From Puniceicoccales bacterium (GTDB taxonomy: Bacteria > Verrucomicrobiota > Verrucomicrobiia > Opitutales > JAIRKQ01), in contig JAIRMM010000012.1 in assembly GCA_031258695.1 (NCBI GenBank), positions 1 to 59,871 on the forward strand: DNA of 59,871 nt, given 5' to 3'. Below are positions 2,190 through 31,336 of this stretch, piece after piece; position 1 is the stretch's first letter, and each line of letters begins with the position of its first letter. A program made the position numbers and the translations under genes. The notes below the pieces were generated by a model. That model saw nothing but the letters and a program-made list of their open reading frames with translations, did no database searches and had not been told where the DNA came from.

Positions 2190-4115
2190 TCATCGGTTTA
2201 CGTTTAATAAAAACTCAGTGTTTGTTTTGGTCTTTCTAATGCGTTGAATTAGCATCTCCATTGCCTCGGTCGGAGAAATCCCCTTTATGGCTCGTCGTAG
2301 GGCGTAGACCTTCTCCATTTCTTCAGGATGGTAGAGCAGTTCCTCTTTCCTCGTTCCACTTTTTTCAATGTTTAGTGCCGGGAACATCCGCTTATCGATG
2401 AGGCTCCTGTCGAGGTGTAGTTCCATATTCCCCGTCCCCTTAAATTCTTCAAAAATTACCTCGTCCATGCGACTTCCCGTTTCCACGAGTGCGGTTGCCA
2501 GAATTGTCAAACTTCCTCCACCCTCGATATTTCTTGCGGCTCCAAAAAACTTTTTCGGGGACTGAAGAGCATTGGCATCGACCCCCCCGGATAACAGTTT
2601 GCCACTGCTAGGTTGCTCCGTATTGTGAGCCCGTGCAAGCCGCGTAATCGAGTCAAGCAATATGACCACATGTTTTCCTGCTTCCACTTGCCTACGGGCT
2701 TTGTCGATCACCATGTCGGCCGCATGCACATGATTATCCGTGGATTCGTCAAATGTTGAACTGATGATCTCGGCATTGGAGACCTGTCTGCGAAAATCCG
2801 TAACTTCTTCCGGCCTTTCATCGATCAGTAATATGATCAGTTTGACATCGGGACGGTTTTTCGAAATGGCATTGGCTATCCCCTGCAACAGGACGGTTTT
2901 CCCCGTTCGCGGAGGGGCAACGATTAAACCACGCTGGCCAAGGCCGATGGGGGTCAAAATATCGATAATGCGCATGGAAACATTATCCCATTTTGTATCA
3001 CCCGTACATTCCAAAAATAGCCTCTCCGTGGGATAGAACGGAATCAAATCCTTGAATTTCGGCAGGTTGCCCACCTGGGTTGGATCACAGCCCATCACAT
3101 TACTGATTTTTAACAGGAATGGGCAGGTAGAATTTTGGGCAGGCGGGTGCAAATAGGCCACCATATCCTGGCCGCGACGCAATCCATATTTCTGTATCAA
3201 AAACTTTGGAATAAATGCACTCTGCGGACGGATCCTATAGTTATCGTTGGCATATACCAGTAGGCCATCCCCCCCTTCAATGGTTTCCAATACTCCCCTG
3301 GCGACGATGGGTATTTTTTCTTCAAACTTTTTTACCATCAGGATTTCAAGAAGTTTGTGGCTACCTTTACCGTTTTCTTCGCCCACCCCATCATGGGCCG
3401 AAATGTCTTTCATTGACAACGATGTCCGGGCTTCATAGGCCCCATTGAAATCGAAGGGAGAGGCATTAAAATCGATATTTTCATCGGCGAAACTTGCCAG
3501 TGCGTCGAAGGAACTCAGGCATCCCATTTCTTTGATTAATCCGCTCGATAGCTGACCAATTTTTACTGTCCTAGCAAACCGCTGCCGATTTTGGCCACCA
3601 CTTTGCTGGTGTTTAAAATTTTGACCATTGTTCCCGTGATTGTTTTTGCCATTATCTCTACCCGAACGCCCCCCGTTGTTCTGGGGCCGATTTTCATTGT
3701 TTCGGGATCTGTCATTACCATTGCGATGATTCTGTTGTCTTTGGGGGGACATCCGGTCTGCGTTTGACGGTGATTGTTCTTCAATCTGCGTGGAAAATCT
3801 CCGCCCCTCGGCGTTTCTCCTTTCAGAATTGTCCACGGGTCTGGGAGATAAATCATCTTCTATGGCGTTATTTGAATGTTTAGGACTCCAAACGACGTCA
3901 AAGGCATTGTAATTCGCATTACGTGGGCTTCCGGATTCATTGCCATCGTCCAAATCCGTAGAAAATTTTTCGGGAACACAATCATCTTCCCCATTGGAAC
4001 CGGCTGGCTTAGCCATTTGGGAAGTATTTTGGCTGCGTTTTGTTGATTTGGCGGATGGTTGTCGCCTGTGTTTTTTCACTTCATAGTCATTATCGTTAGT
4101 AAGTTCCGTATCCAT
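2190..4115 (-). CDS. rho: Transcription termination factor Rho with a long low-complexity N-terminal extension
   Basis: C-terminal two thirds is canonical Rho: a CSD-like RNA-binding region ([15 protein letters not shown]...YGLRRGQ), Walker [13 protein letters not shown], Walker B LLIDE, and KLLSGGVD...[19 protein letters not shown]. About 230 N-terminal residues are N/Q/G/R-rich. Confidence 0.95.
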
Positions 4116-4333
4116 AAAAATTTAAATTTTTATAATAATAGAAAGCCATGCATCAAAAATTGCGAACATGCTTATACTCCCCAAATGCATCAATCCTTGT
4201 TCCAGTGAATGCGAATATACACGAGGATGGCACTCATCCTTGCATAGTTATGTGGCGTTGTCGAGCATTTTTTAAAAAATTTAGGAATTCCAGGGACATA
4301 AAAATCTTGCCTTTTTCCGCCGAAAACATTTTT

Positions 4334-6925
4334 ATGCTCACCATGCATGCCGAATGTCAACAATATGATTTTGATCAAATAGAGCTGTTCTGGCAAAAGT
4401 TTTGGGATAAAAACAGAACATTTTGTGTCCAAGAAGATCCTTCCAAAGAAAAATACTATGTTTTGGACATGTTTCCCTACCCATCGGGGACAGGTTTGCA
4501 CATCGGCCATCCCGAGGGGTATACCGCATCCGATATTTTGGCGAGGTACAAGCACGCAAAAGGGTATAATGTATTGCATCCAATGGGTTGGGATGCGTTT
4601 GGTCTCCCGGCGGAACAGCATGCAACTAAAACGGGGATTAATCCTGCCACCAACACAGCCAACAATGTATCAGTCTTCAAAAAGCAAATGAAACGAATTG
4701 GGTTTGCGATCGACTGGGAAAGGGAAATTAATACCACCGACCCCATTTATTTCAAGTGGACCCAGTGGATATTTTTACAACTTTTTAAACACGGGTTGGC
4801 CTATGTGGATGAATGTCCCGTTTGGTGGTGCGAAGGGTTAAAATCGGTCCTAGCCAATGAAGAAGTCATCGGCGGACGGTCCGAACGGGGAAATTTTCCG
4901 GTTATTAGAAAAAACCTATGCCAGTGGGTTCTAAGAATAACACGCTATGCCGATAAATTATTGGAGGGGTTGTCGAGTGTCGACTGGCCAGATTCAACGA
5001 AACGCCAACAAATAGCTTGGATAGGAAAATCGGAAGGAGCAAATATTTTTTTCAAAATCGATGGCCATGGCGAAGAAATTTGCATATACACCACCCGTCC
5101 GGACACCATTTTCGGGGTAACATTTTTAGTCCTTGCTCCCGAACACCCGTCCGTTGAAAAAATTGTCGCTCCAAAATTTGAAAATGACGTGAAAAAGTAC
5201 GTCGAAAACAGCAAAAAGAAGAGTGACTTGGAACGAACGGATCTGGCAAAAACAAAAACGGGAGTGCAAACGGGGGCCTATGCCATAAACCCTGCCAATG
5301 GGAAAAGGATAGAAATCTGGGTAGCCGATTACGTATTGGCCAGCTATGGAAGCGGTGCCATTATGGCGGTCCCCGGCCACGACAAACGGGACTACGACTT
5401 CGCGTCCAACTACGCCATCGAAATCACCCAAGTAATCACCGACGTTTCCGGAGATAATCAATTGCCCTACGAGGGCGATGGAGTTTTGATAAATTCTGAA
5501 AGGTTTAATGGACTTCCATCCGAAGAAGCTAGGGAAAAAATCGTATCCTGGCTAGGGGAAAACAAACGGGCCGATTTTGCACAAAATTACAAACTGCGGG
5601 ACTGGCTATTTTCTCGCCAAAGGTATTGGGGGGAACCCATCCCAATAATCTGGATCAAGGAAAATGACTACAAGGCAGCGGTTTCGAACGATAAATTTTA
5701 TTTTAAAGAATTTTTACCGGATGAGCCCATCTCCAATGGCAAGGATGGGATAACATATTGCGCTTTGCCGCTTTGCACGAGCCACTTGCCATTGACCTTG
5801 CCGCCGACCGACAACTATTTACCCTCCGGCGATGGGGAAAGTCCACTTGCCAAAATACACTCTTGGCTGAACGTTTATGTAAACGTCGAAACGGGACAGA
5901 TTGTTCCCGCGGATGATTTTAATGAAAAAGACAAAAATTCCTCCTGGGTGCTAGGCCGGCGAGAAACAAATACCATGCCGCAATGGGCGGGGTCCTGTTG
6001 GTATTATTTGAGATACCTGTCTCCCTACTGTGAAACCGCCATCGTCGATCCAAACGCAATAAATTATTGGCAAACGCCGGATTTTTACATAGGGGGGGCG
6101 GAACACGCGGTTTTACACCTCCTATATGCCAGATTCTGGCATAGGTTTTTATTTGACATAGGAGCCATCGAGACGGGGAAAGAACCGTTTGGGAAACTGT
6201 TCCACCAGGGTATCATCCTCGGCGAGGACGGAACAAAAATGTCCAAAAGTCGAGGGAATGTTATCAATCCCGACGAGATCGTGAAGCACTATGGTGCAGA
6301 TGCTCTGAGGTTATATGAAATGTTTCTCGGTCCGCTGGATATGATGAAACCATGGAGCACAAAGGGCATGGAGGGTGTTTCTCGGTTTTTGAAAAAAATT
6401 TGGAACGCATACGTAGACGGGGCTGGCAATGGTAAAAATTTTCAAGGCAATTTGTCCGACGAATGCCAAATGGTCGTCAATGAAACCATTAGAAAGGTTG
6501 GAAACGACATCGAAGGGCTAAAGTTTAATACGGCAATTTCCCAGATGATGATATGTTTAAATTCCATACAAAAAGCAGGAGGGTTCGACCATGCCTCCGC
6601 CAGGAATTTCCTAAAAATTTTAGCACCTTTCGCCCCTCATATTTCCGAAGAATTATGGGCAAGGCTTGGGAATAACAGTAGCATCTACGATGCCCCTTGG
6701 CCGGAGTATGATGATTCAAAAATCGTAGCAACCTCCCAAAAGATTATCGTCCAAGTCAACGGGAAAATGCGGGCAGAACTAATCCTAAATGACCCAAATA
6801 TGTCGGAGGATGCCATTTTTGAACTCGCCGCAAACATGGAAAATGTAAAAAAATACGTCGCCGATAAAAAAATACTCAAAAAGGTTTACGTAAAGGGAAC
6901 AGTTGTTAACTTTGTCGTTGGATAA
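4334..6925 (+). CDS. leuS: Leucine--tRNA ligase
   Basis: HIGH motif (PYPSGTGLHIGHPEGY), KMSKS motif (GTKMSKSRGN), and CP1 editing-domain motifs (TTRPDTIFGVTF, AVPGHDKRDYDFA). The ORF opens at 4148. The family-like N-terminus MLTMHAECQQYDFDQIELFW starts at the ATG at 4334 (alternative 4343), which leaves a divergent promoter region shared with rho. Confidence 0.95.
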   Translation: MLTMHAECQQYDFDQIELFWQKFWDKNRTFCVQEDPSKEKYYVLDMFPYPSGTGLHIGHPEGYTASDILARYKHAKGYNVLHPMGWDAFGLPAEQHATKTGINPATNTANNVSVFKKQMKRIGFAIDWEREINTTDPIYFKWTQWIFLQLFKHGLAYVDECPVWWCEGLKSVLANEEVIGGRSERGNFPVIRKNLCQWVLRITRYADKLLEGLSSVDWPDSTKRQQIAWIGKSEGANIFFKIDGHGEEICIYTTRPDTIFGVTFLVLAPEHPSVEKIVAPKFENDVKKYVENSKKKSDLERTDLAKTKTGVQTGAYAINPANGKRIEIWVADYVLASYGSGAIMAVPGHDKRDYDFASNYAIEITQVITDVSGDNQLPYEGDGVLINSERFNGLPSEEAREKIVSWLGENKRADFAQNYKLRDWLFSRQRYWGEPIPIIWIKENDYKAAVSNDKFYFKEFLPDEPISNGKDGITYCALPLCTSHLPLTLPPTDNYLPSGDGESPLAKIHSWLNVYVNVETGQIVPADDFNEKDKNSSWVLGRRETNTMPQWAGSCWYYLRYLSPYCETAIVDPNAINYWQTPDFYIGGAEHAVLHLLYARFWHRFLFDIGAIETGKEPFGKLFHQGIILGEDGTKMSKSRGNVINPDEIVKHYGADALRLYEMFLGPLDMMKPWSTKGMEGVSRFLKKIWNAYVDGAGNGKNFQGNLSDECQMVVNETIRKVGNDIEGLKFNTAISQMMICLNSIQKAGGFDHASARNFLKILAPFAPHISEELWARLGNNSSIYDAPWPEYDDSKIVATSQKIIVQVNGKMRAELILNDPNMSEDAIFELAANMENVKKYVADKKILKKVYVKGTVVNFVVG

Positions 6926-11763: not shown

Positions 11764-13138
11764 TTATCTGCCATAGTATTTGTCAATTTTTATTTCTCCT
11801 AGAAAAGCTTCATCGTGGGAAACAACTATCATGGCGCCCGGATATTCACGCAGTATTTGAATGACATGGTCACAGGTTTCCAAATCTAAATTATTGGTAA
11901 TCTCGTCCAAGATGAGAAGTTTGGGTGGACGAGCTGCAAATTTGAGCCAGAGAAAGGCGTGCCCTTTCCCCTCCCGATAAATTTTTAACGGCTTCCGATA
12001 TCTCCTCATTTTTTCGAAAGAGAAAGTCGCCTAGGTGACAGCGGATCTCAGCATGGCTCCATTGCGGTGCAACCTCGGATATTATTTCCAATGCCGATTT
12101 GTCGGGAGAAAGAGTTTCGTAGTGCTGATCCAATATGCCGATATCCTCCAGTGGTGGACTATTCCAGTTCCCTGTTTTTATAACCTTCGGATCGTTCAAT
12201 ATCCCTCTAATCAGCGTGGTTTTCCCACTACCATTTCGGCCAGTAAGTGCAACGCGTTCCGAGGAATGAACGGATAAATTAATATTATTCCAAATAAATG
12301 TGTCGCCATAGCCAACGGCTCCATCGCAAATTGACATGACCGTTCCTTTGGCAACTTTTTGAGCCGACAGATTGAACCTGGGAACGATTACCTTGGGCAG
12401 ATGGATTTGTTCCAATTGACCAATCAAATCTTGTTTTTTCTTAGCAATCGCTTTTAGCTTGCTTCCCTGGGAAACCTCAGCCTTCATGGCCTTCATGTCG
12501 CCGACCGATTTCATCCATCTCCGATTGGCGACTTTCTTTTGTCCAGCAGCTTTACTCTTGGCAGCCCTTTCCTGTTCCTTCATTAAACTTCTATGGGCAT
12601 CCTGTTCTTGGTATTTAAGAAGATCTACCTGATGCGTCAGAGACCGGTGTTTGGTTTGCAATTCCTTCATATAATCGTCGTATTTTCCACGAAAGATCGT
12701 AACCTTGCCATTATCTATGTGCCATAAAATATGTACACAATTTCTTAAAATTTCCCTATCGTGCGTCACTACTACCAACGTCCCGCCATAGGACATTAGT
12801 TTTCTCAGAAGCCCAGACCGATTATGCCTATCCAGGTGATTTGTTGGCTCATCGAGCAACATCAAATCTGGGCTACTGCCGAGGGCGATGGAGAGGGCCC
12901 TATTAAATTTTTCACCTCCGCTGTAGGTGTCAAAATCCGTAATTATTTGCGGAATATATGCAGTCGCAACGTTTGCATCCATTTGCGCAATTGCTTTTAT
13001 AAGCGAAGATTTTCCACAGCCGTTACGGCCGATAATGGCAATGCGATCACCCTGGGAAATAGATGCTGAAAAATTGTCAAAACAGACTTTATGAGGAAAA
13101 GATAGGCTGAAATTTCGAATGTGCAACAAATCTGCCAT
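11764..13138 (-). pseudogene. ABC-F family ATPase (two ABC domains) interrupted by a single-base frameshift
   Basis: ORF 11891..13138 has Walker A 1 (GRNGCGKSS), signature 1 (YSGGE), Walker A 2 (GRNGSGKTT) and signature 2 (LSGGERARLSLAQI), then goes out of frame. ORF 11764..12009 continues in another frame with AARPPKLLILDEITNNLD (Walker B) and VSHD. Deleting one T from the aaattt run (about 11938-11943) restores LAQIAARPPKLLILDE with normal family spacing. Confidence 0.8.
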
Positions 13139-13407
13139 TTTTCATTCTCTTATCCATTATTCTTTTTTTGAGACCCGGCAAGACAAATTTCAATGGAGCG
13201 TATGGGTGCACGTGAGATTAGAAAATTACCACCGAGCGTTGGGCGATGATTAACCTAAATTTTTCAACGTTTGAAGCTTGCAATGTTTTCATAGATCGTA
13301 TTAACAGTTGCCACATTTGAATAGGCGAAAATATTACATTTTTCCGGTGAAAAATAGTGTAAAGTTTTCGCATGCAATTTTTTGAGGAAGGTTTAAAAAA
13401 TTTTAGC

Positions 13408-14940
13408 ATGGACAGTATAACACAACCAATAAGTACCTTGGATGGGTCTGAGGGTATGGCATCGCTGGAACAAATAGTCAAAAATTTACAAGAGGCGGCC
13501 AAAAATACCCAAGAATCACAAACGGTGACCGTAGAGGTGAATGGAAGAACTTGTAGCATAACGGCTGTATCTAAAGAAGAGAAGAAATTTAAAATCATCG
13601 TTGAATACGCTTATACCCCCCTAGGATCACGTATATGTCAACGGGTAGCGAAATTCGTCTATGACAAAAGCAATGTCGGCAACAATCTTAAAACTATGGT
13701 TGATCGAATTGATGAAATTGATCTAGAAAATGTTCAAACTAAATCCGATAAAATTACTGCATTTACCATAGCTTTGGAGGAATATAGTAGCGGAGGAATA
13801 GACATAGCCGATTTACCAACCCTCACACCTGAAATCAACAAGACCTTGGATGACATGCAAATTTTCGTGTATCGAAATGATTTATCATCGGACGAAATGT
13901 CGACACTAAGAGTTGCGTTGGCTAACTTTAGTAGAAATGAGGACGTAATACGATGCCCCGGCCATTCTTCATCAATAAATGCAAGTGACCATGACCAATA
14001 TTGCTATAAGATTGCCCTCCAGGTTGAAGCCATTGAGATATTACTTGATGCCAAAGAAAATGGCCATGTGGGATTGGAAAGAAATGGCCCGTCTGAAATA
14101 TTGGGTAGGGGGCAATACAATATCATTCAGCTTGCATATACCGAAAAAAATAAGGAAGGACCGATAGCATTAAAACCATGTGACCTATCCAAATATGAGA
14201 AAAGTTTTGAGAAAACTAACAATGATTCACAATCGACGAAACGATTTATCGGATATAGATGCGGATCCCACAGGCGAAACAAAGCAACTTCAGGGGTCCA
14301 GGACATGTTTTACGCTCTCGGTCAAAAACTTGAAATAACCGTTCCACACGTGATAGTCACCGTTTCTGCAGCGGAAGTAAATGGGGTCCCTTGCACTGCC
14401 ATGGAAAAGCTGGAGGGTTGCACCGTTTGGCAAGCTGCAAGCGGAGGAAAAATTAAATACGATAACGACTTTATATGCCAAGAAACGTGGATGCAACTCC
14501 AAGATATACTAACGGGACAAGTTGACAGGCACGGCCACAACGCAATGTATATACAGAATGAACAAGTAGTTGCCTTCGACCACGAATTTTCGTACCCAAT
14601 ACTTTCTTCACGAACTTTTGCCAGCATGATTCCAACAGCTGTTTCCGCCATCGATGGCATGGAGTCGAAAAGCTATTGTATGCCACCTGTCATAGACGAA
14701 GATATGTTTAGGCTAGTAGAGTCCCTTGAGTTAGATAAATTGGAAAATATGTACCGGGAGTACGGCTTGACGAGCCTGGAAATTGATCCAGCTATGGCAA
14801 GAGCACGGGCTTTGAAAGAGAAAGTAGAAGAATTAAAACAGAACGGTCGCGTGATAAAACGCGATGAATGGATAAGTTCACCACTAGTAAAGGCCCATTG
14901 CAATTCGAAAAATTTTTATGCCCTATTTCACAGTGACTAG
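13408..14940 (+). CDS. Orphan protein with PI3/PI4-kinase-like catalytic motifs, paralog 1 (candidate secreted kinase)
   Basis: ILGRGQYN (Gly-rich), PIALKPCDLSK (Lys strand), ILTGQVDRHGHNAMY (GDRHxxN-like catalytic loop) and QVVAFDHEF (DFG-like). The ATG at 13408 aligns with the start of the paralog at 15860; the ORF opens at 13372. Confidence 0.7.
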   Translation: MDSITQPISTLDGSEGMASLEQIVKNLQEAAKNTQESQTVTVEVNGRTCSITAVSKEEKKFKIIVEYAYTPLGSRICQRVAKFVYDKSNVGNNLKTMVDRIDEIDLENVQTKSDKITAFTIALEEYSSGGIDIADLPTLTPEINKTLDDMQIFVYRNDLSSDEMSTLRVALANFSRNEDVIRCPGHSSSINASDHDQYCYKIALQVEAIEILLDAKENGHVGLERNGPSEILGRGQYNIIQLAYTEKNKEGPIALKPCDLSKYEKSFEKTNNDSQSTKRFIGYRCGSHRRNKATSGVQDMFYALGQKLEITVPHVIVTVSAAEVNGVPCTAMEKLEGCTVWQAASGGKIKYDNDFICQETWMQLQDILTGQVDRHGHNAMYIQNEQVVAFDHEFSYPILSSRTFASMIPTAVSAIDGMESKSYCMPPVIDEDMFRLVESLELDKLENMYREYGLTSLEIDPAMARARALKEKVEELKQNGRVIKRDEWISSPLVKAHCNSKNFYALFHSD

Positions 14941-14944
14941 TTGG

Positions 14945-15110
14945 TAGTATCTGTCAATTTTTATTTCTCCTAGAAAAGTTTCATCGGGAAAAACAACCAT
15001 GGTTATTGTATCTGACAAAGGCATATAAAAAGATAGCAGTCAAGGGGAAATATGCTACCTGCCAAATGCTATTTTCAAGTACAATAACCATACCGTGGCA
15101 CCCGGATATA
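14945..15110 (-). repeat. Displaced copy of the 3' end of the ABC-F gene (compare 11773-11845), split by an insertion of about 90 nt
   Basis: gtatctgtcaatttttatttctcctagaaaagtttcatcgggaaaaacaaccatgg closely matches gtatttgtcaatttttatttctcctagaaaagcttcatcgtgggaaacaactatcatgg at 11775. The match resumes with ggcacccggatata at about 15097. Confidence 0.7.
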
Positions 15111-15482
15111 AGTGCGAATCCCACAGGCGAAACAAAGCAACTTCAGGGCTTCGAGACATGCTTTACATGGAAAAGAAATCCCGTGTAATAATGATCTCGT
15201 ATGCCGGGAAACGTGGATGCAAATCCAAGACATACTAGCGGGATAAGTTGATAGATATGGCAACTGTAATAATAATGGCCCTTGACTTAGGTGAATTGGA
15301 AAATATATATGGAAAGAAACTGCAAATTGGTCTAGCAAAGGGAGGGGAAAGAGAGTTGCAGGCAACGGCTCGGCGGCTGATGGGATCAGGGTCAGGTGAT
15401 AGAACCGGACACAGGGCACATTCGCCACTAGCGCAGGAGTACTGCAACGAACAAAATTTCCATGCCCTAGGACATTTGGGGG
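15111..15482 (+). pseudogene. Decayed, internally deleted third copy of the kinase-like family
   Basis: gtgcgaatcccacaggcgaaacaaagcaacttcaggg matches the GSHRRNKATS-coding stretch of both intact paralogs. Further blocks match the ETWMQLQDILTG, ELENMY and SPLVK..HCN regions, but with stops, frame changes and large deletions. Confidence 0.75.
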
Positions 15483-15859
15483 AGAGATGAATAATGTGGA
15501 CCATTGGCGTAGCCCAATGGTTGGGAGGGTTAAGGAGAGCAATGGTAAAATTTAGCAATGTGATGCCAAAGGAAGAATGGTTTCTTTTCGTGCCAGTTCG
15601 ATGCGATCGAGATTTGGCAAATCGGGACGATGGGTGGAGTAACTGGTATCCGGCATATTAAAAAATTGTGCAAATGCTAGGCTCGGGACTCATAAATTTA
15701 TGTACAAGGGGGGAAGCAGGCGATGGGGGAAAGTGCGGGTACAGCCGCTCCATTTGAACAGGGGGAGACATTACATTTTCCCAATTGGGAAAATAATGTA
15801 AAGTTTTTGTATGCAATTCTCTTGGGAAAGTTATAAAAGAAAACACAGGAAATTTTAAC

Positions 15860-17515
15860 ATGGACGGCATAGCACAACAAACAAGTACGCCGAATGTCCC
15901 CAAGGGCATGGCGTTGCTAGAACAAATAGTCAAAAATTTACAAGGGGCGGCCGAAAAGGACAAAGCATCAAAAACGGTGACCATAGAGGTGAATGGAAGA
16001 ACTTGTAGCATAACGGCTGTACCTAAAGAAGAGAAGGAATTTAAAATCATCGCTGAATGTGTTTATACCGTCCTTGAATCGCGGGTATGCAATCGGGTAG
16101 CGAATTTCGACTATGACGAAAGCAATCTTAGTGACGATCTTAGAATGATGGCTTATCGAATTAATGACATCAATCCAACAAGTACTAATACTAAAGCCGA
16201 TAAAATTACTGAATTTACCACAACTTTGGATGAATATGTTGCCAAAGGAATAGACATAGCCGATTTACCAACCTTCACACCTGAAATCAACAAGACCTTG
16301 AACAACATGCTAGCTTTCGTGTATCGAAATGATTTATCACCGAATGAAATATCGACGCTAAAAACCGCATTGGCTAATTTTAGTAGAAATGAGAAACTAA
16401 TACGATTCCCAAAACAATCCTCATCAATAAATGAAAATGGTTGTGACGCCCACTGCCTGGGGATTGCTCTCCAGGTTGAAGCCTTTGAGATGTTACTTGA
16501 TGCCAAAGAAAATGGCTATGTAAGGCTGGAAAGAAATGGCCCGCCTGAAATATTGGGTAAGGGGCAATATAATACCGTTCAGGTTGCATATACCAAAAAA
16601 AATAAGGAAGGACCAATAGTATTAAAACCATGTGATCTATCCAAAGAAAACCGAGATTCGAAGGCATTTACACACGCTTCCCAATCCATACAAATATTCG
16701 TAGGACATGCGTGCGGATCCCACAGGCGAAACAAAGCAACTTCGAAGCTACAAGATATGCTTTGCGCCCTTGGTCAAGAGCATGGAATAACCGTTCCACA
16801 CGTGATAGCCTCTGTTTTTGCAGCGGAAGTAAAGGGGATTCCTTGCACTGCCATGGAATATCTGAAGGGTCTTTCCGTTTGGCAAACTTTATCTGAAAGA
16901 AAAATTCCGTATAATAATACCTTCATATGCCATGAAACGTGGATACAACTCCAAGATATACTGACGGGGCAAATAGACAGACATGCCAACAACGTAATGC
17001 TAATAGAGGACGGACAAGTAGTTGCCTTCGACCATGACCTATCGTTCGTAACATATCCTCCACGAACTTTTGCCAGTATAATTCCAAAAATTATTGCAAT
17101 TCCAAAAATTATTGCAACACCAACGGATATAATCAAGGATGGTCATCCCGTAGAAGCCGCCTTTGACGGTCTAAGGACGAGCAACTATTGTATGCCGCCC
17201 GTCATAGATGAGGAAATGTATACCGTAATAACAAATCTTAATTTAAATGAATTAGAAAATATGTATAGGAAATGTGGGTTAGTGAAACTGCAAATTGAAG
17301 CGGCTATGGAAAGGGCACGGGGGTTGCAGACAATGGTTCAGCGGCTGAAGGATGGGGGGCTGGTGATAGAACCGAACGAATGGGCAACTTCACCACTAGT
17401 GAAGCAGCATTGTAACAAATATAATTTCTACGCTAAACGGCATCTTAGTACTCGCATAGAAAAACAGAAACCGGAAGATGCACATAACACGAAGCGGGAC
17501 TTGGAGAAGGCATGA
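15860..17515 (+). CDS. Orphan protein with PI3/PI4-kinase-like catalytic motifs, paralog 2
   Basis: ILGKGQYN, PIVLKPCDLSK, ILTGQIDRHANNVM and QVVAFDHDL. Collinear with 13408..14940 along its whole length. aggaa lies 9 nt upstream of the ATG. Contains an 18-bp perfect tandem duplication (IPKIIAIPKIIA). Confidence 0.7.
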   Translation: MDGIAQQTSTPNVPKGMALLEQIVKNLQGAAEKDKASKTVTIEVNGRTCSITAVPKEEKEFKIIAECVYTVLESRVCNRVANFDYDESNLSDDLRMMAYRINDINPTSTNTKADKITEFTTTLDEYVAKGIDIADLPTFTPEINKTLNNMLAFVYRNDLSPNEISTLKTALANFSRNEKLIRFPKQSSSINENGCDAHCLGIALQVEAFEMLLDAKENGYVRLERNGPPEILGKGQYNTVQVAYTKKNKEGPIVLKPCDLSKENRDSKAFTHASQSIQIFVGHACGSHRRNKATSKLQDMLCALGQEHGITVPHVIASVFAAEVKGIPCTAMEYLKGLSVWQTLSERKIPYNNTFICHETWIQLQDILTGQIDRHANNVMLIEDGQVVAFDHDLSFVTYPPRTFASIIPKIIAIPKIIATPTDIIKDGHPVEAAFDGLRTSNYCMPPVIDEEMYTVITNLNLNELENMYRKCGLVKLQIEAAMERARGLQTMVQRLKDGGLVIEPNEWATSPLVKQHCNKYNFYAKRHLSTRIEKQKPEDAHNTKRDLEKA

Positions 17516-17635: not shown

Positions 17636-19876
17636 TTAAAAGGAATATTCAGCCCCAACGGAAAGGTTGTGCGTGGAAAAATCCTTGTTAAATCTCGCGA
17701 TGTAAGAACCAACGACGCTCCAGTGAATGTTCAATTTCCGAAGAGCTCCAAGAGACATAATGGCTGCGTTCCGTGAAGGTTGTCTAAATGTTGGAGCGAA
17801 TTTGGCAATACCCAAGTTATTATCAAAGGAGATGGTAGCATCGGAATATTTCCGCATCACCTGACATTCCAAGCCTGTTTTCAATGAAAGTGTGAGCTTT
17901 TTGTCGATCAACTCCTGGTCGAGAATTTCTTTTTCAGCGTTGAAACCGAGGACGATGGCGAAGAAATCATGATTGACGAAAGAAACATGTTGTGCTCCCA
18001 CCGCTGCTGTCGTTGTTTCGTCGTACCCCTTTTGAGCAATATGGCTATAATTTGCACGAAGCCATAGACCAAACTGATAATCTTTGTAGGCATACAAGTT
18101 TTTGACGAGTTCTACACCCATGAAAAGATTATTAGACCTAACTTTAGCATCAAAAACATTGGAGGCTAAATCGGTCCTGTGCAACCTGTCATCGTTACGG
18201 CTATACCCAACGGTAGCCCCGATGTTTGCTTTCAAATACCTATCATTGAAAAATTCATAGGCACCAAACAGTTCAACCGTATAAATATTATGTTTAGCAG
18301 ATTTCTCACGGCTAACGACGGGACCACTAAATTTCGTCTTCCCGTGGGCATATCCAAAGGCGACACCCATTCTAAGATACCTTTCGTTAGGAAATGTCCA
18401 AACATCATCGAGCCCCATGATGAAACCACCCATGCGGCTATCATACCCCAGTCCGGAAACCTTATTCTGATGGGCGTGGCCATGGATGATATGAATGAAC
18501 GGATCGGCAAGGCAACCCTTAACGCTTGTCAGGCGATCGGTAATGGCATTGACAAACAATGCATTAGCCGTCTCTGTCAAGAATGCTAGTTCAGCATTAA
18601 CGTGGGAACTGGCACTTTCACCGTCAGGCAAGCCGCCTCCGGGCGCACCTCCACCCCCGGGCGCACCTGACAACGAAGCTGGCTGTGAACCACCTCCGGC
18701 TCCTATTCTTCTAAATGGACTACCACCACTATTGGGCATACTAAATAGTGACGACTGTGCAACTGGTGCTGACCATGTAAATGGCACTGGCCGTGAATCA
18801 CCTACGGACGCACCAAATCCGGGCGTGCCAAATGGTGCTGGCCGTGAAACATCGGATCTCTTTTCAGACAAATCACCGGGTGCACTAGGTGCTGTCTGTA
18901 AACCACCTCCGGACGCGCCACCTCCGGACGTGCTAAATGGTGCTGGCCGTGAAACATCGGACCTCATTTCAGACAAATCACCTTCAGTCGTGTCCTGCTC
19001 CGACGGCAAAGGTTGTTCTGGGGGCCAATCGTCTTGGGACCAACGCATCCTTGCGGAACCCAAAAAAGACTGGTTGTTTGCTAAGTCAGAATCATTTAGG
19101 TTATGCATAAAATTCCCCATTTCTCCTCTTCTTTGAAAATCAATATCTTCCTGAGCATTCAGCATGCTGTTACCTGAAATTAAACCAACGGCTTCTGCAG
19201 AAGTCGTGGAAAGAACACCTCGAAAAGCACTTTCAGAAGGCTGCGGGACAAAATCTTCATTCCCTCCTGACAGCACCGACGGCGAAGCTGGCTGCGGGAC
19301 AAAATCTTCATTCCCTCCTGACGGCACCGGCGGCGAAGCTGGCTGCGGGACAAAATCTTCATTCCCTCCTGACGGCACCGACGACGAAGCTGGTTGCGGG
19401 ACAAAATCTTCATTCCCTCCTGACGAACCGCCTCCTTGTTGTGGAGCTAAGTGTAAAACATCGAAACTTATTGGAATATCGACATTTCTAAACCCCTCAT
19501 CCTCAATCGTGCCCTGCTCCGGCGGCAAAGGTCGTTCTCTGCTTCCATTCCCGCGTCTCCTTGCGGCAGAAAGAGCATCATTATCCGGGTGAAGATCCCC
19601 ACTTTCCTGTCTCCTGTCGGTCCTCCGAGGACTACGTCTAGGCTCCTGGGAAGCACCTTCATCTCTGTTTCTTCCGTGATCTCTGTTTCTTCCGCGATCT
19701 CCGTTTCCTTCGGGAGGAACAGGTGTGGATCCCTCCACGGGAGGCTTACCTCGGAGAGGTATAGAAAGTAAATGTCCAGAAAATAAATTTCCAGAAAATA
19801 ATACCTTGTCTATGATGACTACAATTATCAAAAAAACCTGAAACTTTCTCAAATTTAAACTAAACCTCTTAATCAT
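17636..19876 (-). CDS. Autotransporter (type Va) outer-membrane protein with a proline/glycine-rich repetitive passenger
   Basis: Hydrophobic N-terminus (FQVFLIIVVIIDKVLF). Repeat-rich passenger: four copies of GGNEDFVPQPAS and two copies of GDLSE(M/K)RSDVSRPAPF. The C-terminal ~300 aa have alternating beta-strand character typical of the autotransporter barrel and end in the aromatic terminus SVGAEYSF. Confidence 0.75.
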   Translation of the reverse strand: MIKRFSLNLRKFQVFLIIVVIIDKVLFSGNLFSGHLLSIPLRGKPPVEGSTPVPPEGNGDRGRNRDHGRNRDEGASQEPRRSPRRTDRRQESGDLHPDNDALSAARRRGNGSRERPLPPEQGTIEDEGFRNVDIPISFDVLHLAPQQGGGSSGGNEDFVPQPASSSVPSGGNEDFVPQPASPPVPSGGNEDFVPQPASPSVLSGGNEDFVPQPSESAFRGVLSTTSAEAVGLISGNSMLNAQEDIDFQRRGEMGNFMHNLNDSDLANNQSFLGSARMRWSQDDWPPEQPLPSEQDTTEGDLSEMRSDVSRPAPFSTSGGGASGGGLQTAPSAPGDLSEKRSDVSRPAPFGTPGFGASVGDSRPVPFTWSAPVAQSSLFSMPNSGGSPFRRIGAGGGSQPASLSGAPGGGGAPGGGLPDGESASSHVNAELAFLTETANALFVNAITDRLTSVKGCLADPFIHIIHGHAHQNKVSGLGYDSRMGGFIMGLDDVWTFPNERYLRMGVAFGYAHGKTKFSGPVVSREKSAKHNIYTVELFGAYEFFNDRYLKANIGATVGYSRNDDRLHRTDLASNVFDAKVRSNNLFMGVELVKNLYAYKDYQFGLWLRANYSHIAQKGYDETTTAAVGAQHVSFVNHDFFAIVLGFNAEKEILDQELIDKKLTLSLKTGLECQVMRKYSDATISFDNNLGIAKFAPTFRQPSRNAAIMSLGALRKLNIHWSVVGSYIARFNKDFSTHNLSVGAEYSF
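19239..19442 (-). repeat. 51-bp in-frame tandem repeat (about 3.6 copies) inside the autotransporter passenger
   Basis: Units begin at 19239, 19290, 19341 and 19392: ggctgcgggacaaaatcttcattccctcctgac(a/g)gcaccg(a/g)cg(g/a)cgaagct. They encode the 17-aa GGNEDFVPQPASxxVxS repeat. Confidence 0.9.
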
Positions 19877-26737: not shown

Positions 26738-28294
26738 ATGAACCCAACAGGTGAAGCAATACTTGACCATAGTCAAATTTTTCCTCAAGGCGATCCAAGC
26801 AATCCCATATCTTCGATTAGGCTAGCGGCAAAAAATTCAAGGATGTCCATAGTAAATCTACTTAGGAAGATAGAAAACAACGCAAAGATAGCTCTTGGAT
26901 TTCTCGGCGTAGATGCTCGATTTTTCTCAAAATTTATTCACAATTTAAGGGGGGCTGTAAGGCCCGCCTGTATCGCAGCTGTATCCTGTTTTGTGGCACT
27001 TCATCTTTTCCCTTCGCTCGGAATAAGTGCCATTGTTGGCATAGTTTTCTTTGTACACCTGGCCGTATCACGGGCCAGGCTAGAAATGATGAAAGAGGAT
27101 TTGGAAGCGGCTAAACAAGCTGGGACAGAAATAGAATCTGGCACCAGGCAAATGGTAGAACAAAATGCTGAATTGCGTAGGCTAAACCTAGAACAAAAGA
27201 CAACGATAGACGCACAAGGAACGACGATAGCAGAAGCACAACGAAATTTGGAAGAAATGCAAAACAACCTTTCGGCAGCCCAGGAAAATCTCGTCCAGGA
27301 ACAACGGATCAAAGAGGAGCAAGACCAATTAATTGCACAACAACAGGTGCAACTCCAAATGCAACAAACTTATATTAACCAATGTCAAAGCTGCCTTGCT
27401 TCGGTTTTTACATCTCAGCAAGAGCTGATACAAGGTTTACAACAAAGGCTAGAATCGCAGACGGCTACGGTCCGGGAAATTTTACAAAATGTGCAGAACA
27501 TTGCGAATGGAGAACAAAAATTGACCGAGGCATTGAATTGGGCTCAAGGGCGAATAGCAGAAGCCCAAGCCAAATTAACGGCGGTGATTGATATAAGTGC
27601 GGATATAACGGATCCTGAAAAATGTAGACAGCTCATTGAAAATGGTCAATTTGCACAAAAGGCACAGGCAATGCAACAGGCCGCCCAAAACGCATATAAT
27701 AAAATGAATGAGCTAAATGCTGGACTTACCACAAGAATTATAGAAGCCCAACGAGCAATAGCAGTCAGCAGGAAACGGGCAGAAGACCAACTTGGGGTAT
27801 TAATGTCGCAACAGCGAGAAACAAGTCATAAGTTGGAGCAAGCCAATGGCCAAATTAAACAAAAGGAACAAGAAATTGCTCGCCTCAAGGAAAAACAGCA
27901 AACGGAATCAAAGCACAACGCAGGGCGAATACAAGCCTTGGAAGCTGAAATTACTCGTGAAAAACAATCCCTGGAGACACTAACCCTAGAAAAAGGCACA
28001 CTGGAACAGAATTTGGAGAAAACTGAGGTTCAACTCGGAACATTACAGGGAGATCTTCATTCGTTGGCATTAACCAATGAAACACTGCGAATACAATGCC
28101 AGATGCAAGAACAAACCATGGAGGAACAGCGGGAAACGATTGAGAGTCAAAGACAGTCATTGGCAGCACTCAATGACAACCTCCATAGCCTTCAAGGACA
28201 ACTACGACAAGGTCCGGGGATTTGGCGAACTTTTGTTACAGCTGCCGGCCTAGCTGTTGGTGCAGTGGCAACCAAGGCAATTCTCCCCGGGTAA
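26738..28294 (+). CDS. Inc-like membrane protein: bilobed hydrophobic hairpin, long Q-rich coiled coil, C-terminal TM
   Basis: PACIAAVSCFVALHLF-PSLG-ISAIVGIVFFVHLAV forms two TMs separated by a 4-residue turn. About 380 aa of heptad-like E/Q/L-rich sequence follow, ending in WRTFVTAAGLAVGAVATKAIL. aagga lies upstream of the ATG. Confidence 0.65.
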   Translation: MNPTGEAILDHSQIFPQGDPSNPISSIRLAAKNSRMSIVNLLRKIENNAKIALGFLGVDARFFSKFIHNLRGAVRPACIAAVSCFVALHLFPSLGISAIVGIVFFVHLAVSRARLEMMKEDLEAAKQAGTEIESGTRQMVEQNAELRRLNLEQKTTIDAQGTTIAEAQRNLEEMQNNLSAAQENLVQEQRIKEEQDQLIAQQQVQLQMQQTYINQCQSCLASVFTSQQELIQGLQQRLESQTATVREILQNVQNIANGEQKLTEALNWAQGRIAEAQAKLTAVIDISADITDPEKCRQLIENGQFAQKAQAMQQAAQNAYNKMNELNAGLTTRIIEAQRAIAVSRKRAEDQLGVLMSQQRETSHKLEQANGQIKQKEQEIARLKEKQQTESKHNAGRIQALEAEITREKQSLETLTLEKGTLEQNLEKTEVQLGTLQGDLHSLALTNETLRIQCQMQEQTMEEQRETIESQRQSLAALNDNLHSLQGQLRQGPGIWRTFVTAAGLAVGAVATKAILPG

Positions 28295-28386: not shown

Positions 28387-28857
28387 TTATTTCATTCGCA
28401 ATGCTGATTTCTTTATTTCTTCGAGGCATCCGTCAAACACAAGCCTCGTGAGTCGTATGATCTGCGGGACTTCTTGCCAGTGATTGTAGTCATCATATGC
28501 AAACACTGCCCTTTGTTCTTTTAAACCATCTTCATAAAACTTGCAGAAAGTCAACCTTTCGACTTGGGAGGAATGTCCATCGACCAATTTGTTTTGCAAA
28601 TTTTTTGCAAACAACGGATCAAATAATTGCTCCTGCATTGCTTCATTGAATTTCCAGAAATATTCTTCATCGGTTTGGCCGATCAGCATATGGGGTTTGT
28701 GATCCACAAAGTCATAGTAGGTATAGGTATACGCTCCCATATTGGAAATATCAATTTCGCATATCAGCTCTACATTTCCCTTGGATAACCCTTCCTTTGC
28801 GTTATCTACCAATTGCACAGATTCATACCTATAGCTAATTCTTACTGGATTACTCAT
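28387..28857 (-). CDS. Hypothetical 156-aa protein, last gene of the tandem 384-aa paralog cluster
   Basis: ATG preceded by gaggaag. Sits 46 nt downstream of the paralog at 28904. No motif recognised. Confidence 0.55.
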   Translation of the reverse strand: MSNPVRISYRYESVQLVDNAKEGLSKGNVELICEIDISNMGAYTYTYYDFVDHKPHMLIGQTDEEYFWKFNEAMQEQLFDPLFAKNLQNKLVDGHSSQVERLTFCKFYEDGLKEQRAVFAYDDYNHWQEVPQIIRLTRLVFDGCLEEIKKSALRMK

Positions 28858-28903: not shown

Positions 28904-30058
28904 TTAAGTGGATTCTGCCATTAATGCTCTAAATCTGCTACGAAATTCTTGCTCGTCGGGATCTGACTCGTCCGTCGAAAAATCCACAAAACTTTGAATT
29001 TTTTCCTCGGACCCGACAATTCTAAATTTATGTCCTGCTTCTAGCAAGTATGCAAGTTCGAAATAGCTCATCGCTCCACGTTGATTTGAATTGCTCACTT
29101 TTCCGTCTTTCAATGCTTTGATAGCACGTTCGACGTGTAGGTCAATGGTTGGTCTGTCAATTGGAGTACTGGCAATTGGACTGCTCGGCTCATTGCTTGC
29201 CCCGTAGACCTGACAAAATATATGATGGGCATAAATCATTCTAAGATCCTTAGAATCATTTATCTTTGACAAAATGTCATCTTCTATAATCACGGACAGT
29301 ATAGGTTTATAATCAAGCTCAGGCATGGTATCGATTTGTCTCAAAATTTCCTTCCAAATGCGATATGATGCGTATGCTCCCTGTGCGGTAAATGTGTGAC
29401 CCTTCTCGCCTTCGGGAAGTATGAATGTTATGTCTCCTCCCTGGGAAGACACATATTGAGCGCGCTCCGGGAAAACGCTTCCCCACGTTGAGGATCCGGA
29501 GGATGGAACCGACCATAGCTCAAATCCAATTCCAAGTATGCGCTTACCGTCTGGAGTTTTAGGATCTGAAACATCTTCGGCATATCCTAACGCGATACTT
29601 CCTTGGGCATCAATGTAATTTAAAAGTGCAATTAAGGCGTTACGCCGTGGGCTACTAACACTTATTTGATCTATAATATCACCAATTTTTTTACTCAAGG
29701 CCGGCAAATCCTCATCGGGTAATTCACCATCTAACAATCGCCTGACTCGATCCTCTGTGTCTGGATCAAACTTAACCTGCCTCCTTACGAAATCATCCAA
29801 AGAGACACTTCTTCCTAAGCCCTGGACTAGAGGCTGTGCCTCTGGTACCAGATCCAATTGATTCGATTTTCGGGAAAGTAGCTCCTGCCTTATGAGCGAC
29901 TGACGAAGATCAGTGTCAGCATATGCGATTTGCCAAAACCTATCCGAAAACTTTGCCTCCATAGAAGCCCTTAGAGCCGCCGCTCCTGCATGACTTTTGT
30001 CAAGAAATGTTATTTCTCCCATGCCTATGAACATGTGGTAAAATTTTTCGTTTGTCAA
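28904..30058 (-). CDS. Orphan 384-aa protein, tandem paralog 1
   Basis: Collinear with 30182..31336: shared blocks LPxLSKKIGDI, RRNALIALxNYIDAQGSIALGY, YVSSQGGxITFILPE, YRIWKEILRQID and an identical C-terminus FRIVGSEExIQSFVDFSTDE...SRFRALMAEST. The ORF-track start is TTG with no clear RBS, so the start is uncertain (the ATG at M13 is possible). Confidence 0.6.
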   Translation of the reverse strand: MTNEKFYHMFIGMGEITFLDKSHAGAAALRASMEAKFSDRFWQIAYADTDLRQSLIRQELLSRKSNQLDLVPEAQPLVQGLGRSVSLDDFVRRQVKFDPDTEDRVRRLLDGELPDEDLPALSKKIGDIIDQISVSSPRRNALIALLNYIDAQGSIALGYAEDVSDPKTPDGKRILGIGFELWSVPSSGSSTWGSVFPERAQYVSSQGGDITFILPEGEKGHTFTAQGAYASYRIWKEILRQIDTMPELDYKPILSVIIEDDILSKINDSKDLRMIYAHHIFCQVYGASNEPSSPIASTPIDRPTIDLHVERAIKALKDGKVSNSNQRGAMSYFELAYLLEAGHKFRIVGSEEKIQSFVDFSTDESDPDEQEFRSRFRALMAEST

Positions 30059-30181: not shown

Positions 30182-31336
30182 TTAAGTGGATTCTGCCATT
30201 AATGCTCTAAATCTGCTATGAAATTCTTGCTCGTCCGTCGAAAAATCCACAAAACTTTGAATTCTTTCCTCGGACCCAACAATTCTAAATTTATATCCCG
30301 CCTCTAGCAAGTATACGAATTCGAAATGGCTTGTCGCTCCATATTGATCGAAATCGCTCCTATTTCCGGCAACCAATGCTTTGATAGCGTATTCGACGCG
30401 TGAACCAATGGTTGATTTGTCAATGGGAGTGTTAGCAATTGGACTGCTTGGCTCATTGCTTAGTGCATAAACTTGACGAAACACATGATAGGCATAAAGT
30501 TTTTTAAAATCCTTCACATCATCTATCTTTGATAGAATGTCATCTTCCATAACCTTGGACAGCGTACGTTTATAGTCAGAACTGGGACCCATGGAATCAA
30601 TTTGCCTCAAAATTTCCTTCCAAATGCGATATGATGTGCATACTCCCAGTGGGGTAAATGTGTGACCATACTTACTCTCGGGAAGTATGAATGTTATGTT
30701 TCCTCCTTGGGAAGAGACATATTGAACGCGTTTCCCAAAAATCGCTCCCCACGTTAGGAATCCGGCGGATGGAACTGACCATAGTAGCCATCCAATTGCA
30801 GGTATAACAGTACCGCCTGGGGCTTTGGGAATTGAAACATCTTCGGTATATCCCAATGCGATGCTTCCTTGGGCATCAATGTAATTTGAAAGTGCAATCA
30901 AAGCGTTACGCTGTGGACTCCTAACATCCATTTGACCCATGATATCGCCAATTTTTTTACTCAAGTTCGGCAATTCCGCATCGGGTAAATTACCACCCAA
31001 GAACCGGTCGATTTGATCCTGTGTGTCCTGATCAAGCGTAGCCCACCTATTTGAGACTTGGTCCAATGAAGTCTGTCTTTCCAAACCCCGGCCCGTGGTC
31101 CGTCCCTTCGATACTCGGTCCAATTGATAGGATCCCCCCATGTCCAATAACCCATGTCGTTTGAGGAACCTACGAAGAACAGTGTTTGCGTATGTTCGCT
31201 GATACCAATCAAACTCAGGGCTTTTAGACTTTCGATCCACAAAATTTCTTACGGCCGTCGCCCCTTTATAACTGCTATCAATGAACGTTCTGCCGTCCAT
31301 GCCACGGAAACGTAGCAAAAGTTCTTCATATGTCAA
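30182..31336 (-). CDS. Orphan 384-aa protein, tandem paralog 2
   Basis: See 28904..30058. Duplication unit is 1278 bp (stop-to-stop spacing). The TTG start at the homologous position is uncertain. Confidence 0.6.
   Translation of the reverse strand: MTYEELLLRFRGMDGRTFIDSSYKGATAVRNFVDRKSKSPEFDWYQRTYANTVLRRFLKRHGLLDMGGSYQLDRVSKGRTTGRGLERQTSLDQVSNRWATLDQDTQDQIDRFLGGNLPDAELPNLSKKIGDIMGQMDVRSPQRNALIALSNYIDAQGSIALGYTEDVSIPKAPGGTVIPAIGWLLWSVPSAGFLTWGAIFGKRVQYVSSQGGNITFILPESKYGHTFTPLGVCTSYRIWKEILRQIDSMGPSSDYKRTLSKVMEDDILSKIDDVKDFKKLYAYHVFRQVYALSNEPSSPIANTPIDKSTIGSRVEYAIKALVAGNRSDFDQYGATSHFEFVYLLEAGYKFRIVGSEERIQSFVDFSTDEQEFHSRFRALMAEST

Follow-up and report, generated by a model that had tools for sequence, protein, structure and literature searches.

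A tandem gene pair and its catalytic motifs

Two intact paralogous genes lie in tandem on the forward strand of the window, that is, the whole 59,871-nt stretch of DNA analyzed here (Puniceicoccales bacterium, assembly GCA_031258695.1, contig JAIRMM010000012.1, positions 1 to 59,871), and the remnant of a third copy is located between them (Table 1). An earlier note on this DNA, made from the sequence alone, had proposed that the pair encodes secreted lipid kinases with a catalytic signature of the phosphatidylinositol 3-kinase/phosphatidylinositol 4-kinase type (PI3/PI4-kinase type; PI3K and PI4K for the enzymes). The two open reading frames (ORFs) on the + strand encode proteins with 59% identity over 528 aligned residues, and their coding DNA is 76% identical, in agreement with the tandem paralogy described there. 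The wording "both intact" in the note had implied a degraded extra copy, and this copy is real: the tblastn fragments correspond to family residues 282-302, 342-377, and 433-532. The ORF 15248..15490 within it still holds "...ELENIYGK...NEQNFHALGH".

The longest ORF of paralog 1 spans 13372..14940 and contains an alternative upstream ATG at 13372. The start at 13408 was preferred because the resulting protein, which begins with MDSITQ, lines up with the start of paralog 2, because an in-frame TAA is present in the stretch of paralog 2 corresponding to 13372-13407, and because the NCBI protein has a length of 510 aa. The ATG at 13372 was rejected on these grounds.

Four motifs are present in both paralogs in the order given in the earlier note, with identical residue numbering. 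These are a Gly-rich loop, L232-G-(K/R)-G-Q-Y-N238; a lysine motif, G-P-I-(V/A)-L-K256-P-C-D; a catalytic loop, G370-Q-(I/V)-D373-R-H-x-x-N378; and the start of the activation loop, V-A-F-D391-H-(D/E). N378 and D391 are spaced by 13 residues, which agrees with the spacing in class I PI3K. Conservation of the motifs was scored in a 43-sequence family alignment (42 relatives from a database search) with a mean column identity of 25%. Residues G235, K256, G370, Q371, R374, N378, and D391 were invariant in 43/43 members, D373 and H392 were each found in 42/43, and H375 in 38/43. As judged from the alignment, this conservation is far beyond chance at such a mean identity, and the K/DRHxxN/FDH residues, whose conservation among orthologs the earlier note had wanted checked, are kept across the family. 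The C-terminal extension is marked by a further conserved block, Y-C-M-P-P-V-I-D-x-x-M, at residues 443-453.

The 110 nt located 5' of the two starts are 63% identical with gaps, as compared with 51 ± 2% in shuffled sequences, so the conservation of ~100 nt upstream of each ATG that the note had pointed out is real but modest. The best-kept core common to both paralogs reads ATTACATTTT...AAAATA(G/A)TGTAAAGTTTT.G.ATGCAATT. Since the upstream identity (63%) is lower than that of the coding DNA (76%), the similarity would be explained as the trace of a tandem duplication in which the promoter or leader was copied with the gene. Promoter-like sites were not enriched (17 found vs 11.7 ± 2.6 expected), and the sigma-70-like match upstream of paralog 2 is not statistically distinctive. 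An imperfect palindrome, TTACATTTT..AAAAT..TGTAA, occurs 5' of both genes and was considered as an operator or RNA hairpin. This was unsupported, and no regulatory meaning is given to the palindrome because it is not retained in the ortholog of the related genome (L001/L002).

Table 1. Coordinates of the kinase-like genes, their motifs and upstream regions, and the type III chaperone genes of the window.
Feature	Position	Strand	Remarks
Upstream region of paralog 1 (promoter or 5' leader)	13295..13407	+	Core ATTACATTTTTCC..GAAAAATAGTGTAAAGTTTTCGCATGCAATT; alignable to the corresponding region of paralog 2 and to the L001/L002 ortholog
Paralog 1	13408..14940	+	510 aa; NCBI MDR0693117.1, locus tag LBF49_00900, annotated "hypothetical protein"; variable N-terminal alpha/beta-helical region, atypical kinase domain, C-terminal helical extension
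Paralog 1 Gly-rich loop, L232-G-R-G-Q-Y-N238	14101..14121	+	
Paralog 1 K256 (ALKPCD), predicted ATP-binding lysine	14173..14175	+	43/43 members
Paralog 1 catalytic loop, G370-Q-V-D-R-H-G-H-N378	14515..14541	+	
Paralog 1 D391-H-E, predicted equivalent of the metal-binding DFG Asp, activation-loop start	14578..14586	+	D391 in 43/43 members
Decayed third copy (pseudogene remnant)	15104..15487	+	tblastn fragments, E 1e-7 to 1e-15; between the two intact genes
Upstream region of paralog 2 (promoter or 5' leader)	15745..15859	+	Sigma-70-like ATTACA-16-AATAAT at 15770..15797
Paralog 2	15860..17515	+	551 aa; N-terminal region 1-195, kinase core ~196-400, poorly modelled loop 405-435, C-terminal helical extension 440-535
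Paralog 2 Gly-rich loop, L232-G-K-G-Q-Y-N238	16553..16573	+	Between modelled strands E230-234 and E239-246
Paralog 2 K256	16625..16627	+	End of modelled strand E250-257
Paralog 2 catalytic loop, G370-Q-I-D-R-H-A-N-N378	16967..16993	+	Inside the PF00454 match (residues 352-398)
Paralog 2 D391-H-D	17030..17038	+	
Possible second CesT-like gene (weak)	41728..42153	-	PF05932 E=0.016, 15.8 bits vs cutoff of 22; spans profile positions 16-115 of 119
CesT-family type III secretion chaperone gene	43378..43824	-	PF05932 E=3e-20, 73 bits vs cutoff of 22

Predicted fold and superfamily assignment

AlphaFold2 models were built with the family alignment, and Foldseek was used for the comparison against the PDB (E<=1e-3, with the 50 top neighbours listed per search). 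The full-length model of paralog 2 is bilobal, with a predicted local distance difference test score (pLDDT) of 87.9 and a predicted template modelling score (pTM) of 0.78. The model of the kinase domain only (residues 195-535) reached a pLDDT of 92.2 and a pTM of 0.91. The modelled elements follow the order beta1, G-loop, beta2, beta3 carrying K256, helices, beta4-5, a long alphaE, the catalytic loop, beta6-7, and D391. Foldseek returned 435 matches for the full-length model and >1000 for the domain, and every listed neighbour is a kinase. At the level of the models, the kinase fold is established, and the AlphaFold and Foldseek check suggested in the earlier note thus found the fold that it predicted. 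The overall architecture and C-lobe were not close to a solved PI3K or PI4K, for which the template modelling score (TM) was <=0.35 among the neighbours listed. The structure search, as far as the models go, does not separate a lipid kinase from a protein kinase.

The superfamily assignment comes from profile searches. Paralog 2 matched PF00454 (PI3_PI4_kinase) with E=1.3e-4 and 22.4 bits over residues 352-398, corresponding to model positions ~113-215 of 241. In scans of each family member, a PF00454 match of E<=0.01 was obtained for 26/43, the best value being 5.6e-7. PF00454 was the sole recurrent Pfam family, and three members carry a precomputed match to it. When 1.84 billion representative proteins were searched exhaustively with a profile, 863 relatives were obtained at E<=1e-3; many of the distant ones have mainly the C-lobe and the C-terminal extension in common with the family. 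PF00454 was matched by 33/74 distant relatives with E down to 1.1e-35, some well above the threshold. The strongest scorers are giant proteins with multiple kinase domains, and in each domain the match is limited to the stretch of the model that holds the catalytic and activation loops. When the profile of the 74 distant relatives was compared with the PDB, the best match was human PI4K type II alpha (PI4K2A; 4hnd), with E=3.4e-4 and an alignment from the G-loop to the activation loop. It was followed by FAM20 proteins (FAM20A, FAM20B, FAM20C) and then by mTOR/PIKK proteins (mTOR, SMG1, MEC1, DNA-PKcs). The PDB sequence searches with paralog 2 and with the family profile gave chemoreceptor and MecI noise as the best matches (E 0.03-0.8). 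From these sequence comparisons we place the family, as a divergent branch, among the atypical kinases of the PI3/PI4-kinase type, with which it shares the catalytic signature rather than a proven full domain.

The members and distant relatives that were looked up are all named "hypothetical protein", except for HD-domain labels on three names returned for two proteins. Effector-type modules are fused to distant relatives, namely Ank, MLD (membrane-localisation domain), SidE_PDE, NUDIX, and HD. Three giant relatives, P0109 (2154 aa), P0124 (1545 aa), and P0150 (1236 aa), have three or more kinase domains, and one of them is fused to NUDIX. The relatives annotated with an HD domain (P0071/P0081), like the giant ones, are from uncharacterised metagenomic bacteria, some of them Puniceicoccales. 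A helical segment that directly precedes the kinase core (profile positions ~118-226, "...FVxQNDLSxxEIxxL...SINExD...EAxEILLDAK") is present in 2-5 tandem copies in some relatives. It was found in P0036, P0044, P0074, P0091, P0089, and P0177 (521 aa), and in the last its best match lies near the N-terminus. By these sequence matches, the segment appears to behave as an independent, repeatable module.

Distribution, evolutionary rate, and secretion-related genes

The distribution of the family was scanned in one genome per species (GTDB representatives). Twenty-seven loci were found, 24 of them in metagenome-assembled "Puniceicoccales bacterium" genomes with accessions of the JAIR/JAIS/JAIT series, and the family often occupies three to five loci per genome. 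This accession range belongs to termite-gut metagenomes of BioProject PRJNA732531, and the Opitutales lineage that includes the endonuclear Ca. Nucleococcus has been called "putatively endosymbiotic" (PMC11257099). The "Nucleococcus cluster" comprises nuclear and cytoplasmic endosymbionts of protists (PMC8204192). As sampled here, the family is essentially confined to the termite-gut "Puniceicoccales" lineage considered endosymbiotic in gut protists. One member with 37% identity and intact motifs, carrying Gln/Pro-rich N-terminal repeats, is encoded at 2536..4095 of an 11-kb contig (L018; JAIRZM010000020.1) assigned to "Holosporaceae bacterium" Gsp477_bin9. This genome is that of an alphaproteobacterial endosymbiont of protists and comes from the same series of termite samples; the GC content of the contig (45%) is within the range of the Puniceicoccales loci. 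The copy represents either a transfer between co-resident endosymbionts or a misassigned contig.

A related genome (L001) has the same gene order with a tandem kinase pair at the same place. The ratio of nonsynonymous to synonymous substitution rates (dN/dS) was determined between the window and this syntenic contig, with dS being about 0.5 for the kinases and ten flanking housekeeping genes alike. The dN/dS values were 0.42-0.53 for the kinases vs 0.04-0.19 for the ten housekeeping genes, the kinases evolving ~4x faster than their neighbouring genes. Within the kinases, the ratio was ~0.9-1.1 in the N-terminal 195 residues, 0.33-0.57 in the kinase core, and 0.26 in the C-terminal part. Gene turnover is also evident from the copy-number expansion and one pseudogenised copy.

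The earlier note had described the N-terminal ~230 aa as lacking a recognisable domain and a signal peptide, and both statements held. No Pfam or NCBIfam domain was found in this region of either paralog, and hydropathy analysis revealed no Sec-like hydrophobic N-terminus or transmembrane segment (maximal Kyte-Doolittle 19-residue mean 1.15-1.40). The N-terminus is polar, rich in Ser/Thr/Pro/Gln, and modelled as disordered (pLDDT 36 for residues 1-10). Such an N-terminus is compatible with a type III signal but not diagnostic of one.

Two type III chaperones had also been reported for the window. The CesT-family gene 43378..43824 is solid, and its homologs carry the NCBI name "type III secretion system chaperone"; the match of the second gene is weak and sub-threshold (Table 1). 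Chaperone genes directly adjoin the family or its relatives elsewhere. In another Puniceicoccales genome (L023), a family member at 2404..4047 is followed 120 nt downstream by a CesT gene at 4167..4658 (E=9.7e-14), and in a different Verrucomicrobiota genome (L028) a distant relative lies between two CesT genes (E=1.1e-18 and 1.6e-15) of the same strand. The presence of a type III system in Verrucomicrobia is noted for V. spinosum in PMC3681970. A homolog 83% identical to the window chaperone was found in 110 contig-index blocks, including contigs of 0.2-1 Mb. In ENA metagenome scaffolds of up to 676 kb (L030-L033), the homolog lies next to ruvB, ruvC, ruvX, and a ~1030-aa orphan, the same in four places. 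These contigs suggest a widespread small-genome relative.

Proposed function and alternative explanations

The paralogy, motif conservation, kinase fold, PF00454/PI4K2A link, lineage restriction, multi-copy status, accelerated nonsynonymous evolution, and chaperone adjacency in two related loci are directly supported by the analyses above; catalytic activity, secretion, host targeting, and the substrate are what we infer in addition. We propose, at about an even chance, that the genes are members of an expanded family of exported, active atypical kinases that is specific to this lineage and has a PI3/PI4-kinase-type core. In this model, the proteins, which lack a Sec signal, would pass from the bacterium into the protist host, probably through a type III system aided by CesT-class chaperones. 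The fast-evolving N-terminal region would guide them to a host site or partner, and the conserved kinase core would move phosphate from ATP to a host substrate. K256 would position ATP, D373 would serve as the catalytic base, and N378 and D391 would bind metal. A host phosphoinositide is the single most likely class of substrate, at somewhat less than an even chance, and a host protein is a close second, somewhat less likely again. A more specific model, which we put forward only tentatively and consider less likely than not, is that this is the first recognised effector family of the "Nucleococcus cluster". It would consist of tandemly expanding, diversifying, type III-delivered phosphoinositide kinases with a PI3/PI4-like active site, whose variable N-terminal modules would direct them to different host membranes or the nucleus, building or maintaining an intracellular niche, and whose copies may have been exchanged with co-resident Holosporaceae endosymbionts.

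Several results weigh against the main proposal. Both window proteins are under the PF00454 threshold (22.4 bits for paralog 2 vs the curated gathering threshold of 27.1 bits; no match for paralog 1 at E<=1), and the PF00454 matches are confined to the catalytic and activation-loop segment and never extend beyond it. The 43-member family profile retrieved nothing significant from all PDB chains and no PI4K at E<=10. TM values were 0.2-0.42 among the Foldseek neighbours listed, with no close solved structure; the top neighbours were generic protein kinases, and the best PI4K, PI4KIIIbeta (8q6g), ranked 31st (TMq 0.26, TMt 0.35). Because only generic kinase neighbours were found at low TM, nothing structural favours a lipid over a protein substrate. 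The PI3/PI4-kinase-type signature of the earlier note is supported at the family level, where 26/43 members and 33/74 distant relatives match PF00454 and PI4K2A is the best PDB match for the distant-relative profile; the window proteins themselves are sub-threshold, and the structure search ranks no PI3K or PI4K above ordinary protein kinases. As to export, the CesT genes of the window are ~25 kb from the kinases, whose immediate neighbours are housekeeping genes and an autotransporter. Genes of a type III apparatus were absent from the window, from the fetched loci, and from the surroundings of the homologs of the window chaperone, where only housekeeping genes were present. Relaxed selection in an endosymbiont genome undergoing reduction, as opposed to diversification driven by the host, could account for part of the high dN/dS. 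The term "secreted" in the note has circumstantial support, from the CesT adjacency in two related loci, the fast evolution, and the expansion in a lineage considered endosymbiotic.

The same architecture and delivery could serve host-directed Ser/Thr protein kinase effectors with a host protein as the substrate, comparable to PIKKs or Fam20/CotH kinases, a reading that we regard as rather doubtful. PF00454 also spans the PIKK protein kinases, mTOR, SMG1, MEC1, and DNA-PKcs are among the PDB matches of the distant-relative profile, and Fam20C was matched by 3/74 distant relatives (E down to 2.2e-8), albeit by none of the window proteins or their 42 close relatives. The top Foldseek neighbours are all protein kinases, but this ranking is biased because the PDB is dominated by protein kinases, and TM is low for all neighbours. 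The best full-domain sequence match is, moreover, the lipid kinase PI4K2A, and the characterised bacterial effectors with such a signature named in PMC7298712 and PMC9758233 are PI kinases.

It is improbable that the proteins act inside the symbiont as nonsecreted kinases, either small-molecule kinases of the APH type or HipA-like toxin kinases, with the tandem copies arising from ordinary duplication and decay. The genes do lie among housekeeping genes with conserved synteny, and their secretion is itself inferred only; APH appeared as isolated weak matches (paralog 2, E=0.053; one family member, 1.1e-4), and HipA_2 was matched once in a distant multi-domain relative. These HipA and APH matches are not recurrent, however, HipA being absent from the window proteins and the 43 members, and no antitoxin-like small gene is located beside either copy. 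The restriction of the family to a host-associated lineage with multiple copies per genome, the CesT genes adjoining relatives in two loci, the fusion of relatives to effector modules, and an N-terminal dN/dS of ~1 alongside an invariant active site also argue against an internal role. A kinase fold with nonkinase chemistry, for instance the AMPylation of SelO or the glutamylation of SidJ, or an inactive pseudokinase scaffold is very improbable. Several bacterial effectors with an atypical kinase fold do perform other chemistry, SidJ being counted among the Legionella atypical effector kinases and pseudokinases (PMC9758233), and the C-lobe of the present family is without a close structural neighbour. 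The canonical Lys, catalytic Asp (42/43), Asn, and metal-binding Asp are nevertheless kept in canonical order and spacing, and the SelO and SidJ families were absent from all Pfam scans.

The proposed exported PI3/PI4-kinase-type enzymes resemble the PF00454 superfamily (PI3K, PI4K, PIKK) in having a Gly-rich loop, a beta-3 Lys, a (G)xxDRHxxN catalytic loop, and then a metal-binding Asp. The Lys strand of type II PI4K reads xFKPxxE, and that of the window family reads xxLKPxD. Unlike PF00454 kinases, the activation loop opens with D-H-D and not D-F-G or D-N-G, and unlike PI3K and PI4K there is no helical accessory domain; the family has its own N-terminal alpha/beta-helical region and a C-terminal helical extension with CMPPVID. 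The likeness to Fam20/CotH-type kinases consists of the few distant relatives matching Fam20C and of the FAM20A/B/C matches in the PDB over the catalytic and activation-loop segment. Fam20 kinases carry signal peptides and work in the secretory pathway.

None of the bacterial PI-kinase effectors named below is known as a tandemly expanded multi-copy family. LegA5, OpiA, LepB, and Risk1 are bacterial effectors of the PI3/PI4-kinase type (PMC7298712), MavQ is a Legionella PI kinase effector, and LepB and AnkK cluster with the Fam20/CotH-type group (PMC9758233). Legionella LegA5/AnkK and Francisella OpiA (PI3K), Legionella LepB (PI4K) and MavQ (PI kinase), and Rickettsia Risk1 (PI3K) are all delivered into the host by intracellular bacteria. 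The window family is like them in its divergent PI3/PI4-type catalytic and activation loops, seen by weak PF00454-type similarity, and in its proposed mode of action. It differs in that the known effectors are type IV/VI substrates in Proteobacteria, whereas the present family is verrucomicrobial with links to type III chaperones. The comparison with OpiA, LegA5/AnkK, MavQ, and Risk1 was made by description, no protein so named being among the PDB sequence matches, and LepB_N was not matched by the window proteins (E<=1), the 43 family members, or the 74 distant relatives. Literature searches returned no description of the family or of secretion systems in its lineage, and a search for a HopAG1-type kinase/Nudix link gave nothing useful. 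We rate the family as new and phylum-novel within a known superfamily, following a known effector strategy; in view of the missing LepB_N match, the sub-threshold PF00454 scores, and the distinct N- and C-terminal parts, it was not assigned to any family of the known effectors.

The verrucomicrobia that live within termite-gut protists, in some cases inside the nucleus, are not culturable, and we know of no work on how they manipulate their hosts and of no effector described from them. With its conserved active site, fast evolution, multiple copies, and type III chaperone associations, the family is a concrete first effector candidate for this lineage. If the proposal is correct, the bacterial PI3/PI4-kinase-type effectors, so far from Legionella, Francisella, and Rickettsia, would gain representatives in a new phylum, with a new secretion route and in a nonpathogenic symbiosis, and a structurally distinct branch would be added to the atypical kinase superfamily, with no solved neighbour above a TM of ~0.4 among those listed. 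The interest lies mainly with symbiosis and kinase specialists, the function being predicted here from sequence and models.

Genomic surroundings of the kinase pair

The window contains the housekeeping genes rho, leuS, the dcw cluster, clpB, ligA, dnaN, and gyrAB. Together with a split ABC-F gene and several tandem orphan families, they make the window look like part of a small, decaying genome, as far as gene content tells. The ABC-F type ATPase gene at 11764..13138 (-) is split by an apparent frameshift into the ORFs 11764..12009 and 11891..13138. Its ortholog in the related genome L001 is likewise split, with products of 249 and 199 aa, which fits gene decay in the course of genome reduction. 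The gene at 17636..19876 (-), directly downstream of paralog 2, encodes an autotransporter with a beta-domain match of E=3.6e-20. Its passenger is Gly/Pro-rich, with four tandem "GGNEDFVPQPAS.." repeats and duplicated "DLSE(M/K)RSDVSRPAPF" segments, and it is possibly a surface or host-contact protein.

Orphan genes are found further along the window. The 518-aa product of 26738..28294 (+) is without a Pfam match; it is hydrophobic at residues ~77-110 and at the C-terminus and contains a Gln/Glu-rich coiled coil of great length, a layout reminiscent of chlamydial inclusion-membrane (Inc) proteins. A second tandem pair of orphan paralogs, 28904..30058 and 30182..31336 (-), encodes two clearly similar proteins of 384 aa each, likewise without a Pfam match, and is followed by a 156-aa orphan at 28387..28857 (-). 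The pair is another candidate for an expanded host-interaction family. Near the end of the window, the 517-aa orphan encoded at 58110..59663 (-) has a marginal, sub-threshold match to the eukaryotic RGS domain (E=0.0093); if real, it would be a further eukaryote-like candidate effector.

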